Notes: generated from the letters alone by a model not told the origin. Shown: positions 28,282 through 31,971, counted from the first letter of the stretch. The stretch is DNA of 64,000 bases from an uncultured Chloroflexia bacterium (GCA_963838125.1 CAWIPT010000007.1:1268189-1332188); one strand, 5' to 3'. Translations and numbers: made by a program.

Positions 28282-30573
28282 ATGACCTTCGATCGGGTCG
28301 CCGTCGTCGAGGAAGCGCTGGACGCGCTGCTCCACGACCTGGCACCCGCCGCGTCACCGCTCCATCCCAATGACCCAATTCGCCCGGGGTCGGGGCTGAC
28401 TGCCGCGCGCGCGGTGGAGCTGTTCGAGGACCAGGTGGTCAGCCGCCAGGTGGATCGCGCGGCCCGCGAGCTGAAGAAGACGAACCGCAGCTTCCACACC
28501 ATCGGGGGCGCCGGCCACGAGAACAACGCCGTCCTCGGCGCCCAGCTGCGGATCACCGACCCCGGCTTCCTCCACTACCGGTCCGGCGGGTTCATGATGG
28601 CCCGCGCTCGCCAGCTCCCCGGCAGCACCCCGGCGTTCGACGCGCTGCTGGGCGTCGTCGCCTCGCGGGAGGATCCCATCGCCCAGGGCCGGCACAAGGT
28701 GTGGGGCAGCCGACCGCTGTGGATTCCGCCCCAGACCTCGACCATCGCGTCGCATCTGCCCAAGGCGGTGGGCATGGCCTACTCGCTGGCCCGCGCGCGG
28801 CGACTCGGCCTGGCCGACGAGCTCCCGCCGGATGCCATCGTCATGGCCTCGTTCGGGGACGCGACGGTCAACCACGCCACCGCACTCGCCGCCTTCAACA
28901 CCGCGCGCTACGGCGCGCGCATCGGTCTGCCCATGCCCATCCTCTTCGTCTGCGAGGACAACCAGACCGGGATCAGTGTGCCGACTCCCGAAGGCTGGAT
29001 CGAGGCCACCTTCTCCAACCAGCCACACCTCCACTACCGGCGGGCCGGCGGTGACATGGACGAGATCTGGGACACGGTGGCCGAGGCCATCCACCTGGTG
29101 CGCGCCGCCCGCGAGCCGCTGTTCCTCCATCTCGACGTGGTCCGGCTGTGGGGCCATGCCGGATCCGATGCGGAGCACGCCTATCGCACCGCCGACGAGA
29201 TCGCCGCCACCGAGCGCGACGACCCCGTGGTCCGCAACGCTCGCCGGCTGGTCGAGACCGGAGCCGCCACCCCTGACCAGCTGCGCACGCTCGTCACTGA
29301 CGTCCGCGAACGGGTGTGGGCTGCCGCCGAAGAGGCGACCAGCCGGCCGCGGCTCAGCACCACGGCCGAGGTCACCGCACCCATGGCTCCGTACCACCGG
29401 GATCGGGTGGCGGCCCGCGTCGCGATCCCCGTGCTGGATGATGAGTCGCGCGCCACCACCTTCGGCGGGACCCTCCCCGAGCGGGCGACCCAGCCCACGG
29501 CGCGGACTCTCGCCGGGCACATCAACGCGGCATTGACCGATGAGCTGGCCCGGCGGCCGGAGCTCATCGTGTTCGGGGAGGACGTCGGCCGCAAGGGTGG
29601 CGTCTACAACGTGACCCACGACCTCCAGAAGCGGTTCGGGGCGGGCCGCGTGTTCGACACCCTGCTCGACGAGACCTCGATCCTGGGTATCGCCCAGGGC
29701 GCGGCCCACGCCGGCCTCTTGCCGATCCCCGAGATCCAGTACCTGGCCTACCTCCACAACGCGCTGGACCAGATCCGGGGCGAAGCCGCATCGCTCCAGT
29801 TCTTCAGCAGCGGCCAGTTCCGCAACCCCATGGTCGTCCGGGTCCCGGGCCTCGCCTACCAGAAAGGCTTCGGCGGCCATTTCCACAACGACAACTCGGT
29901 GGGCGCCCTGCGCGACATTCCGGGCGTGATCCTCGCGGTCCCGGCCAGGCCGGAGGACGCGGCGCGCATGCTGCGCGGCTGCATCGGTCTGGCCCTCGAA
30001 GACGGGCGGGTCGTGATCTTCCTCGAACCCATCGCCCTCTACCACGAGCGCGACCTCCACGCCGATGGCGACGGCGGGTGGTTGGGCGACTATCCCCCGC
30101 CGCCCGACGCCCTCCTGCCGGGCGAGGTCGGCATCCACGGGGACGGGACCGATTTGCTGGTCGTCAGCTACGCCAACGGCCTGCGGATGTCGCTCCAGGC
30201 CCAGGCCATCCTTGCCCGCGACCATGGCGTGGCGGCGCGCGTGCTGGACCTGCGATGGCTGAATCCGCTCCCGGTCAAGGCCGTGCGCAAGCATGCCGCT
30301 GCCTGCGGACGGGTGCTGATCGTGGACGAATGCCGAGCGACCGGAGGCGGCGTCGCCGACGCCCTGATCGCTGACCTGGCGGAGCGGGCTTTCGACGGCC
30401 GCCTGGCCAGCGTGCGGGCGGTGGACTCGTTCGTGCCGCTGGGCACGGCCACGTCCGCGGTCCTGGTCGGGCTCGACCAGGTGGTGGCCGCTGCGGTCGA
30501 AGCCGCGCGTCAGCCAGAGGCCTCCGCGAGATCAGCCAAGAACGCCAACCCCGCAGCAGCGGCACCCAACTGA
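28282..30573 (+). CDS. fused 2-oxoacid dehydrogenase E1 component (alpha plus beta, TPP-dependent)
   Basis: 763 aa. The N-terminal half is E1alpha-like, with the TPP motif FGDATVNH...FVCEDNQTGIS. The C-terminal half is E1beta/transketolase-like (LVFGEDVGRKGGVYNVT...FDTLLDE). No E2 or E3 gene is adjacent. Confidence 0.85.
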   Translation: MTFDRVAVVEEALDALLHDLAPAASPLHPNDPIRPGSGLTAARAVELFEDQVVSRQVDRAARELKKTNRSFHTIGGAGHENNAVLGAQLRITDPGFLHYRSGGFMMARARQLPGSTPAFDALLGVVASREDPIAQGRHKVWGSRPLWIPPQTSTIASHLPKAVGMAYSLARARRLGLADELPPDAIVMASFGDATVNHATALAAFNTARYGARIGLPMPILFVCEDNQTGISVPTPEGWIEATFSNQPHLHYRRAGGDMDEIWDTVAEAIHLVRAAREPLFLHLDVVRLWGHAGSDAEHAYRTADEIAATERDDPVVRNARRLVETGAATPDQLRTLVTDVRERVWAAAEEATSRPRLSTTAEVTAPMAPYHRDRVAARVAIPVLDDESRATTFGGTLPERATQPTARTLAGHINAALTDELARRPELIVFGEDVGRKGGVYNVTHDLQKRFGAGRVFDTLLDETSILGIAQGAAHAGLLPIPEIQYLAYLHNALDQIRGEAASLQFFSSGQFRNPMVVRVPGLAYQKGFGGHFHNDNSVGALRDIPGVILAVPARPEDAARMLRGCIGLALEDGRVVIFLEPIALYHERDLHADGDGGWLGDYPPPPDALLPGEVGIHGDGTDLLVVSYANGLRMSLQAQAILARDHGVAARVLDLRWLNPLPVKAVRKHAAACGRVLIVDECRATGGGVADALIADLAERAFDGRLASVRAVDSFVPLGTATSAVLVGLDQVVAAAVEAARQPEASARSAKNANPAAAAPN

Positions 30574-31616
30574 TGACCGACGATCGGCCGCGCGCCGTCC
30601 TCGTCCTTCCCGGCCGGGGCGCCTACACCGCGGCCACGCTGGGCACGATCCCCGCCGACCACCCGCTGGTCGCAGAGGCGGAGTCCCTCCGCGCCGAGAT
30701 GGGCCTCGACAGCCTGATCGCCCTCGACTCCGCAGATCGGTTCGCCCCCGAGATTCACCTACGGCCGGTCAATGCCTCACCGCTCATCTTCCTGGCGTCC
30801 ATGCTCGACGCCGAGCGGGCGGCCGCCGACCACCGGCTGGTCGCGGTCATCGGCAACTCGCTGGGCTGGTACACCGCGCTCACCGTTGCGGGCGCGCTCG
30901 ACTTCGCCGACGGATTCCGGCTGGTCCAGGGCATCGCGCTCCTCCAGGAGGAGGCAGCTGCGGCCGGCGTGGACGGCGGTCAGCTCATTTACCCCCGGGT
31001 CGGGGTGGACTGGCAGCCGGTCGAGGCGTACGGCGCGGCGATAGAGGCGGCCTTGACCGATGGCGCCGACTCCGATGACGGCCGGAGGGAGTCGGACAGC
31101 GCCTACCCGAGCGTCGACCTCGGCGGATACGTGGTGCTGGCCGCGTCGGAAGCGGGCATCACCCGTCTGCTCGACGTCCTGCCACCGGTCAAGCTCGGCG
31201 AGCGCCAGTTCCCGCTCCGCCTCGCGTACCACGGCCCGTACCACACCCCCCTGCTGGCCGATGTGGCCAGCGCGGCCCGCGCGCGCTTCTCGACCCTGGA
31301 CTGGCGGGCGCCGTCCGTGACCCTGATCGACGGTCGCGGGGCCCGGTTCACACCGTGGGCCACCAACCCGGTCGAACTGGCCTGGTACACGCTTGGCGAT
31401 CAGATCGTTACACCGTACCGTTTCGCAACCAGCGCGCGCGTCGCATTGCGCGAGTACGCCCCCGATGTCCTGGTCCTGACCGGGCCCGGCAATACGCTCG
31501 GCGGCGTGACCGGCCAACTTGTGGTGGCCGAGGGGTACCGAGGCATTCGAACGCGGGCCGATTTCGACTCAGTCCAGTCCGGACCCTCTCCCCTGGTCCT
31601 GTCGATGCGAGCCTGA
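30573..31616 (+). CDS. acyltransferase-domain protein (FabD/MCAT fold, atypical GNSLG elbow)
   Basis: 347 aa. The start ATG shares one base with the E1 stop (TGATG). It has GNSLGWYTAL in place of GHSLGEYSAL and a later YHGPYHTPLL His motif. Confidence 0.75.
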   Translation: MTDDRPRAVLVLPGRGAYTAATLGTIPADHPLVAEAESLRAEMGLDSLIALDSADRFAPEIHLRPVNASPLIFLASMLDAERAAADHRLVAVIGNSLGWYTALTVAGALDFADGFRLVQGIALLQEEAAAAGVDGGQLIYPRVGVDWQPVEAYGAAIEAALTDGADSDDGRRESDSAYPSVDLGGYVVLAASEAGITRLLDVLPPVKLGERQFPLRLAYHGPYHTPLLADVASAARARFSTLDWRAPSVTLIDGRGARFTPWATNPVELAWYTLGDQIVTPYRFATSARVALREYAPDVLVLTGPGNTLGGVTGQLVVAEGYRGIRTRADFDSVQSGPSPLVLSMRA

Positions 31617-31617
31617 C

Positions 31618-31971
31618 GTGGATTGCCGGCTCATCTCCTTCGGCGTTGTCGAGATCGACGGTCAGCGGTACGACCGTGACGTCGTCGTCGAATCCGGCAA
31701 GGTCCGCCGCCGGAAGAAGGGCCCATCGAAGCCGCAAAAGGGAGAGTACGGCCATACCCCGCTGACCGCCGATGAGGCGATCCCCTGGTCGGCTCCGCGG
31801 CTCATCGTGGGAACGGGCGCCAGCGGCGCGCTCCCGATCACCGATGACTTCTACCGCGAGGCTTCGCGGCGCGACGTGGAGGTCATTGCCCGGCCGACGG
31901 CCGAGGCGTGCGACCTTTTCTCTGCCAGCGACCCGGACTCGGTGGCGGCCGTCCTCCACGTCACCTGCTAA
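31618..31971 (+). CDS. Mth938-like domain protein
   Basis: GTG lies 1 nt after the upstream stop. The 117-aa product has the pattern ISFGVVEIDGQRYDRDVVV...LIVGTGASGALPI...EVIARPTAEACDLF, typical of the Mth938/DUF498 fold as I recall it. Confidence 0.6.
   Translation: MDCRLISFGVVEIDGQRYDRDVVVESGKVRRRKKGPSKPQKGEYGHTPLTADEAIPWSAPRLIVGTGASGALPITDDFYREASRRDVEVIARPTAEACDLFSASDPDSVAAVLHVTC

Follow-up and report, generated by a model that had tools for sequence, protein, structure and literature searches.

The window analysed here, a 64-kb stretch of DNA (G000:C7:1268189-1332188), comes from a 2.2 Mb assembly that is 87% complete and has a G+C content of about 70%; its closest proteins place the window in Candidatus Limnocylindria, in the Chloroflexota. 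It contains a pair of coupled genes encoding a fused, thiamine diphosphate (ThDP)-dependent E1 component of the 2-oxoacid dehydrogenase type and a divergent acyltransferase (AT) with the fold of FabD. Our comparison across genomes shows that this E1–AT pair is a real and widespread variant of the 2-oxoacid dehydrogenase system, undescribed as far as our literature search found. We tentatively propose, at somewhat less than even probability, that the two genes make up a 2-oxoacid dehydrogenase without an E2 or E3 of its own, in which E1 would work on a borrowed lipoyl arm and the AT would replace the E2 core.

The fused E1 and its acyltransferase partner

An earlier, sequence-only reading of this DNA described three tightly coupled genes, and the open reading frames (ORFs) and both junctions are as it gave them: the stop codon of the E1 gene and the start codon of the AT gene share one base (TGATG), and the AT gene is joined to a small third gene by TGAcGTG.

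28282..30573, + strand: single-chain alpha-beta fused ThDP 2-oxoacid dehydrogenase E1, 763 aa, assigned from Pfam domains, PDB matches and motifs
30573..31616, + strand: divergent FabD/MCAT-fold serine acyltransferase (AT), 347 aa, assigned from a PDB FabD match, an AlphaFold2 model, the GNSLGWY elbow and His224, with no malonyl-binding Arg
31618..31971, + strand: Mth938/DUF498-like small protein, 117 aa, GTG start, assigned from PF04430 and a PH1505 match; a lineage-specific accessory

For the third gene, an alternative TTG start at 31519 is unlikely, because the Pfam and PH1505 matches both start at residue 6 of the GTG version. A promoter and terminator scan of positions 27000-32800 gave no signal above chance.

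The E1 carries three Pfam domains in one chain: E1_dh at residues 51-358 (73.9 bits against a cut-off of 22), Transket_pyr at 414-581 (71.3 against 27) and Transketolase_C at 614-717 (55.8 against 25.9). Its beta half has the pyruvate dehydrogenase (PDH) E1 beta chain 3duf_B as nearest solved chain (2e-43). The alpha half is remote from all solved chains, with E1 alpha of branched-chain 2-oxoacid dehydrogenase (BCKDH) the best match at 2e-16, and the E1_dh match scores 74 bits, where the genome's separate E1 alpha reaches 273 bits. The ThDP–Mg motif reads G192-D193-A194 ... E225-D226-N227 (GDA...EDN), His292 aligns with the ‘GHH’ histidine of BCKDH alpha, and the beta half contains D463-E464 and H533/H535. 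The motif, His292, E464 and H533/H535 are all invariant in 31 E1 orthologues from seven lineages, and more than 150 alignment columns are invariant among the orthologues. Judged by these residues, the fused E1 appears to be catalytically intact.

By sequence, it also appears to form a distinct clade. Other fused E1s of the Chloroflexota (five genomes) are 33-35% identical to it and have no AT adjoining. It shares its domains and motifs with ordinary BCKDH/PDH E1s, a grouping that the sequence-only reading had named as counting against its idea, yet it falls below every NCBIfam PDH/BCKDH equivalog cut-off (138 against 454 bits for PDH E1 beta; 74 against 411 for PDH E1 alpha) and stands beside an E2 in none of 100 loci.

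The AT has no Pfam match even at an E value of 10. Its best match to solved FabD chains is at 8e-12 (3k89), and its NCBIfam scores (mdcH, 54 bits; fabD, 46.8 bits against a cut-off of 260.9) both lie far under the cut-offs. The AlphaFold2 model has a pLDDT of 95.3 and aligns in Foldseek with FabD/MCAT structures at TM scores of 0.69-0.79 (E 4e-19); sequence and structure prediction thus both bear out the FabD fold that had been proposed for this protein. Across 51 sequences of the AT family, neither Ser96 (GNSLGWY) nor His224 (HTPL) varies. At the position of Arg117 of E. coli FabD, a residue that binds the malonyl carboxylate, the family has Ile or Met, and the genome's own canonical FabD has Arg there; the FabD motif GQGSQ becomes PGRG(A/S)Y, with Gln11 aligned to Arg15. 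We take both FabD residue numbers, Arg117 and Gln11, to be those of the E. coli enzyme. A conserved C-terminal extension continues for about 35 residues beyond the usual FabD end, and the nearest protein-language-model clusters include starter-unit acyltransferases (SAT) and VinK-type transferases that act from one acyl carrier protein (ACP) to another. Sequence and model support the assignment of the AT as a putative non-malonyl FabD-fold enzyme. A complex prediction for E1 residues 395-763 and the full AT scored 0.00, a result that speaks neither for nor against an interaction.

Conservation of the pair and its neighbours

For comparison we took the best 80 of at least 597 AT loci in a species-genome collection. 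They come from Bdellovibrionota, Planctomycetota, Marinimicrobia, Gammaproteobacteria, Oligoflexus, Sphingomonadales and Limnocylindria, the gammaproteobacterial carriers being Colwellia, Thalassotalea, Idiomarina, Shewanella salipaludis, Halomonas/Billgrantia and Pseudoalteromonas. In 78 of the 80 loci, spread over seven or more lineages, the gene immediately before the AT encodes an orthologue of the fused E1 (43-89% identity). One of the two exceptions, L137, is a contig end; the other, L081, has no E1 within 7 kb. L081 is from Planctomycetota bin_345, has an AT of 45% identity and is the only locus that retains the full 7-kb upstream flank but has no adjoining fused E1. In the window's own family, represented by 20 fetched loci that are all from published genomes, the E1 is directly upstream of the AT every time (20/20). 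The stop codon of E1 and the start codon of AT overlap in other loci as well, typically by -4 or -8 bases, and one metagenomic fragment, P0355, is a fusion in which the E1 C-terminal domain is followed by the AT in a single chain. That the two genes adjoin in distant phyla, with stop and start codons that mostly overlap, supports the earlier idea of an E1/AT functional unit that lacks its own E2 and E3.

A second apparent fusion, the 1019-aa called protein P0418 (G009), was discounted, as its E1 frame runs into its AT frame most likely through assembly frameshifts. E1 matches are also spread over two or three frames in L036 (G084), L052 (G063) and L053 (G009), most likely assembly errors.

The distribution of the pair is patchy. 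Of 66 genomes sampled from the window's family, 60 have the AT at E <= 1e-30 (56 of 62 when the four unpublished genomes G087, G096, G123 and G156 are left aside), and none of 134 sister-family genomes of the same class does. E1 orthologues at 69% identity or more are confined, in a 300-genome Chloroflexota sample, to the same family (15/15). Among 1.8 billion representatives, the AT subfamily comprises 102 clusters (50% identity) at E <= 1e-30. The closest relatives of the window's pair outside the Chloroflexota are in Planctomycetota (L100, L116, L152 and L159; 62-64% identity for E1, 50-56% for the AT). This closeness, taken with the absence from sister families and from other Chloroflexota, suggests that the Limnocylindria may have acquired the pair horizontally.

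The conserved unit is the E1–AT pair and not the triad. The third protein is indeed Mth938-like, as claimed, with a DUF498 match (PF04430) of 35 bits against a cut-off of 33 and matches to PH1505 (8e-12) and MTH938 (1e-4). Besides the window genome, however, a DUF498 gene directly follows the AT only in two of the 20 family loci (G084 and G093) and in L140, and none was found in the relatives G090, G024, G003, G045 and G132, two of which belong to the same genus; even within the window's genus, then, only some members have it behind the AT. Neighbourhood conservation, by which the sequence-only reading proposed to check its triad, therefore holds for the pair and fails for the three genes together. 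The right-hand neighbour of the pair varies, and the Mth938-like gene, which lies outside the conserved unit, was added recently and locally.

In the family, the genes on either side of the pair are partly fixed. Upstream of E1 is a transporter gene, which tblastn finds in 18 of the 20 family loci but not in any locus from another phylum:

27118..28032, + strand: EamA-family transporter (Pfam EamA), a syntenic upstream neighbour in the family only

Right after the AT, 16 of the 20 family loci have a gene of about 299 aa that lacks a Pfam match and has a weak likeness to AlkA-type 3-methyladenine DNA glycosylase (2jhn, 1e-5). It lies at L041:9015-9914 (+), with equivalents in L040-L055 and in L095, L097, L106, L120 and L153. 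In the window genome tblastn finds no copy, and the site is taken up by the DUF498 gene and an ECF-sigma cassette. We rejected this AlkA-like gene as a third partner, given its restriction to Limnocylindria loci and its absence from the window genome.

All ORFs of the 80 loci were clustered to find recurrent neighbours, and across phyla the pair has a single other recurrent neighbour, an acyl-CoA dehydrogenase in 37 of the 80 loci. It is glutaryl-CoA dehydrogenase (gcdH), with human GCDH matched at 1e-126 and the next family at 1e-79. In Gammaproteobacteria the order is LysR<-gcdH-E1-AT, gcdH being upstream and co-directional with the pair and LysR divergent; in Bdellovibrionota and Oligoflexus gcdH is divergent from the pair; and in Marinimicrobia it is downstream, in the order E1-AT-(x)-gcdH, where x is sometimes an HMGL-like gene. 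Three independent arrangements point to a pathway that gcdH and the pair would share. The sole 2-oxo acid known to give glutaryl-CoA by oxidative decarboxylation is 2-oxoadipate, and the gcdH neighbours in these other lineages make 2-oxoadipate the most likely substrate of E1, which would yield a glutaryl unit. The conversion of 2-oxoadipate to glutaryl-CoA belongs to lysine and tryptophan breakdown (PMC9367764). Where gcdH is not a neighbour it may still be present in the genome, as in Planctomycetota, where four of five pair-carrying genomes have an orthologue elsewhere (49-53% identity, 371-449 bits).

Two kinds of gene near the pair were noted in passing. An HMGL-like gene with a homocitrate-synthase-type second domain stands between AT and gcdH at L125:8008-9132, at L089:8008-8938 and in seven other Marinimicrobia-type loci; if it is a homocitrate synthase, it would tie the pair to the formation of 2-oxoadipate from 2-oxoglutarate. 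In a Bdellovibrionaceae locus, a dehydrogenase of the AlaDh_PNT family directly follows the AT (L084:6021-7127, +), a family that takes in alanine dehydrogenase and the lysine-forming saccharopine dehydrogenase.

Proposed mechanism and competing explanations

The sequence-only reading held that the pair has no E2/E3 partner, and this stands: there is no E2 catalytic domain in the window, and no E2/E3 cluster adjoins the pair in 100 loci. The window also contains no canonical FabD or ACP gene. The genome's own copies of an E2 catalytic domain, canonical FabD and ACP are found at C7:584886, C4:47547, C7:353662, C7:898144 and C4:109355. A single E3-E1alpha-E1beta-E2 operon, at C7:584-590 kb, supplies a lipoyl and an E3-binding domain, and four further biotin/lipoyl-type domains occur in the genome. 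Beyond this genome, all five diverse pair-carrying genomes tested have an E2 elsewhere, and in the 80 clustered loci the pair has no linked gene for a lipoyl protein, ACP, E2 or E3. A search for such partners, also proposed at the outset, thus succeeds in the genome at large, where an E2/lipoyl operon and ACP are present, and fails beside the pair. Pfam finds no redox-cofactor or carrier domain in either E1 or AT.

Two E2-like sequences in the genome are irregular. The E2 gene of the operon (G000:C7:584866-586567; L057:4866-6567, -) is split over two overlapping frames, one with the lipoyl and E3-binding domains and the other with the catalytic domain, probably by an assembly frameshift. A second, partial E2-type catalytic domain (G000:C4:47547-48041; L056:7617-8873) lies in a 418-aa ORF without a lipoyl domain, and this ORF might be a piece of an actinobacterial-style fused OdhA-like gene broken by frameshifts.

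A hydroxyalkyl-ThDP adduct is no acyl donor until it is oxidised, a step for which every known E1 of this class relies on the lipoyl disulfide of a swinging arm. With no redox or carrier domain in the pair, no linked lipoyl gene and an E2 elsewhere in the tested genomes, a borrowed arm is the most economical model. In this model, E1, with its catalytic residues apparently intact, would decarboxylate a 2-oxo acid on ThDP; the gene neighbours in other lineages suggest that this acid is most likely 2-oxoadipate and that a glutaryl unit results. A swinging thiol arm would then be reductively acylated by E1; the lipoyl domain on the resident E2, from the operon at C7:584-590 kb, is the most plausible candidate for this arm. 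The AT would take the acyl group from the arm onto Ser96 and hand it to CoA, replacing the CAT-fold E2 core, and the resident E3 would reoxidise the arm. All steps past decarboxylation are ones that we infer. ABHD11 is a precedent for a serine enzyme with S-glutaryl-lipoyl arms as its substrate (PMC12643935).

Several observations weigh against this proposal. One concerns gcdH itself, of which no orthologue was found in the window genome or in the 66 sampled family genomes, the best hits being at 33-39% identity and no more than 248 bits, a level that we read as paralogous by calibration on the Planctomycetota orthologues. This tally includes eight unpublished genomes and has the same outcome without them. 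The window holds two of the genome's three acyl-CoA dehydrogenase paralogues, and neither is a gcdH orthologue:

17862-19058, - strand: acyl-CoA dehydrogenase of butyryl-CoA type, 9 kb upstream of the E1–AT pair
about 59430-60575, - strand: acyl-CoA dehydrogenase paralogue, no gcdH orthologue

The first of these was considered as a stand-in for gcdH and rejected, being of butyryl-CoA type and separated from the pair by unrelated genes. With no gcdH and a nearby dehydrogenase of butyryl type, the fate of a glutaryl product in the window genome is unexplained. Either the product has another fate in Limnocylindria, or the substrate inference is wrong in general. A change of substrate within Limnocylindria is unlikely, as 181 columns show at least 95% conservation in the gcdH-linked orthologues and the Limnocylindria E1 agrees with them at 162 of these, with only two conservative switches. 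Also unfavourable are the habits of the fold, since FabD-fold enzymes are known to use CoA and phosphopantetheine arms and not lipoyl arms, and the literature, in which our search found no biochemical or genetic datum on the pair.

One rival reading keeps the module but changes its chemistry. The module might act on another 2-oxo acid (2-oxopimelate, 6-amino-2-oxohexanoate or other), or it might use no lipoyl arm at all, with CoA or an unknown oxidant acting directly at the ThDP site and the AT serving an acyl-enzyme step. This would suit both the absence of gcdH from the window's family, although its E1 is a conserved orthologue, and the finding that a lipoyl or carrier gene is never linked to the pair. 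Nevertheless, gcdH linkage in three independent arrangements and four lineages would be difficult to account for with any product but glutaryl-CoA or something closely related to it, and the hydroxyalkyl-ThDP needs an oxidant for which neither protein has a redox-cofactor domain, so we hold a chemistry of this kind to be rather unlikely. Alternatively, E1 could plug into the resident E2/E3 like a normal E1, leaving E2 to make the acyl-CoA; the AT would then be an accessory that clears misacylated or stalled acyl-lipoyl arms in the manner of ABHD11, or that hydrolyses or transfers the product. Translational coupling to E1 in 78 of 80 loci across phyla, plus the fusion, is unexpected for such an accessory role, and a heterotetramer-type E1 normally travels with the E2 that bears its binding domain, which is never so in 100 loci. 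An accessory AT consequently seems unlikely to us, despite the presence of an E2 elsewhere in all tested genomes, the retention in E1 of the alpha His through which canonical E1s acylate the lipoyl group, and the deacylation of glutaryl-lipoyl by ABHD11 in mitochondria (PMC12643935).

The sequence-only reading had suggested yet another function, in which E1 and AT make an unusual acyl unit and load it onto an ACP as a lipid or polyketide starter, for example for a ketosynthase operon without its own AT or ACP downstream:

39646-40734, - strand: ketosynthase gene, about 8 kb downstream of E1-AT-DUF498

The position of this operon and its lack of an AT and ACP in the window are as described, but its link to the pair is unsupported: the operon is on the opposite strand, past the ECF-sigma cassette, and in the 80 loci from seven or more lineages no recurrent neighbour of the pair is a ketosynthase or ACP gene. 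The ketosynthase protein itself gives 33-37% partial matches in five sister-family genomes, indistinguishable from ordinary FabF-type enzymes and therefore uninformative on co-occurrence. ACPs are the usual acceptors of FabD-fold transferases, and the SAT and VinK-type enzymes among the nearest language-model clusters fit a starter-unit role, but the recurrent neighbours are catabolic (gcdH and, in Gammaproteobacteria, LysR), canonical FabD and ACP are present elsewhere in the genome, and in the QncN/L/M precedent the system itself supplies the lipoyl domain, E2-type transferase and ACP (PMC6335953). A starter-unit function is accordingly improbable, though the AT may still have an ACP as its acceptor. 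Most improbable of all, and close to refuted, is the view that an ordinary BCKDH/PDH-type E1 and an acyltransferase unrelated to it are neighbours only by chance or through general synteny. Synteny does extend over the whole neighbourhood in the family, including potA, the EamA gene and the AlkA-like gene, but the pair persists in 78 of 80 loci in unrelated phyla where the other neighbours all differ, its stop and start codons overlap, and P0355 joins the two proteins.

Relation to known systems and significance

The proposed borrowed-arm dehydrogenase resembles several known systems in part. The heterotetrameric (alpha2beta2) PDH/BCKDH E1s, as in Geobacillus stearothermophilus (1w85/3duf) and human BCKDH (1dtw), have the same Pfam domains, ThDP–Mg motif, alpha His and beta Glu/His; the E1 of the pair differs in being fused into one chain, in its very divergent alpha half, in its scores below the equivalog cut-offs, and in its place beside a FabD-like AT and never beside E2/E3. 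The AT shares the fold (TM 0.69-0.79) and the position of the Ser-His dyad with FabD/MCAT and with trans-AT and polyketide synthase (PKS) AT domains. Unlike FabD/MCAT, it has GNSxGWY for GHSxG, Ile/Met for Arg117, Arg for Gln11 and about 35 additional C-terminal residues, scores below Pfam/NCBIfam thresholds, and is encoded with an E1 rather than with fatty-acid or PKS genes.

DHTKD1 belongs to an E1 class other than the alpha/beta type. In the animal 2-oxoadipate dehydrogenase complex, DHTKD1 (E1a) borrows the E2o DLST and the E3 DLD (PMC9367764); the overall reaction is the same as the one proposed for the pair, and in both the E1 is without its own E2/E3. The E1 of the pair is nearest to alpha/beta-type E1s and so is not DHTKD1-like, the AT is FabD-fold and not an alpha/beta hydrolase like ABHD11, and for the pair 2-oxoadipate is a proposed substrate. 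In the glycolicacyl-ACP system QncN/QncL/QncM (and SclQ1-4), an E1/transketolase-like ThDP enzyme works with a lipoyl attachment domain, an E2-type acyltransferase and a dedicated ACP (PMC6335953). Both this system and the pair have ThDP E1-type enzymes that feed, or in the case of the pair would feed, an acyl group to a carrier outside the classical complexes; the lipoyl domain, E2-type transferase and ACP of the Qnc system have no counterpart in the window or linked to the pair.

A full-text literature search on the gene pair and on the bacterial 2-oxoadipate step found no paper on such a pair and no assigned gene for the bacterial conversion of 2-oxoadipate to glutaryl-CoA. With some reserve, as the broader claim is less probable than not, we suggest that the pair may be a widespread, undescribed 2-oxoacid dehydrogenase that uses a FabD-fold AT for acyl transfer, with an E1 that borrows a lipoyl arm or needs none, and that it may carry out this 2-oxoadipate step in bacteria and serve a still unknown route in the gcdH-less Limnocylindria.

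In databases, the E1 is named ‘2-oxoisovalerate dehydrogenase E1’ and the AT ‘ACP S-malonyltransferase’. Both labels are probably wrong and lead to distorted pathway reconstructions in several uncultured groups that are abundant. Among the carriers are marine Gammaproteobacteria that can be cultivated, as well as predatory bacteria. Because the pair is of small size, looks soluble and occurs in hosts that can be grown, the hypothesis is directly testable. If it is true, a gene would be placed on a gap in bacterial lysine and tryptophan catabolism, and the textbook E1–E2–E3 design would have a common variant built on another acyltransferase fold and carried by at least 597 species genomes.

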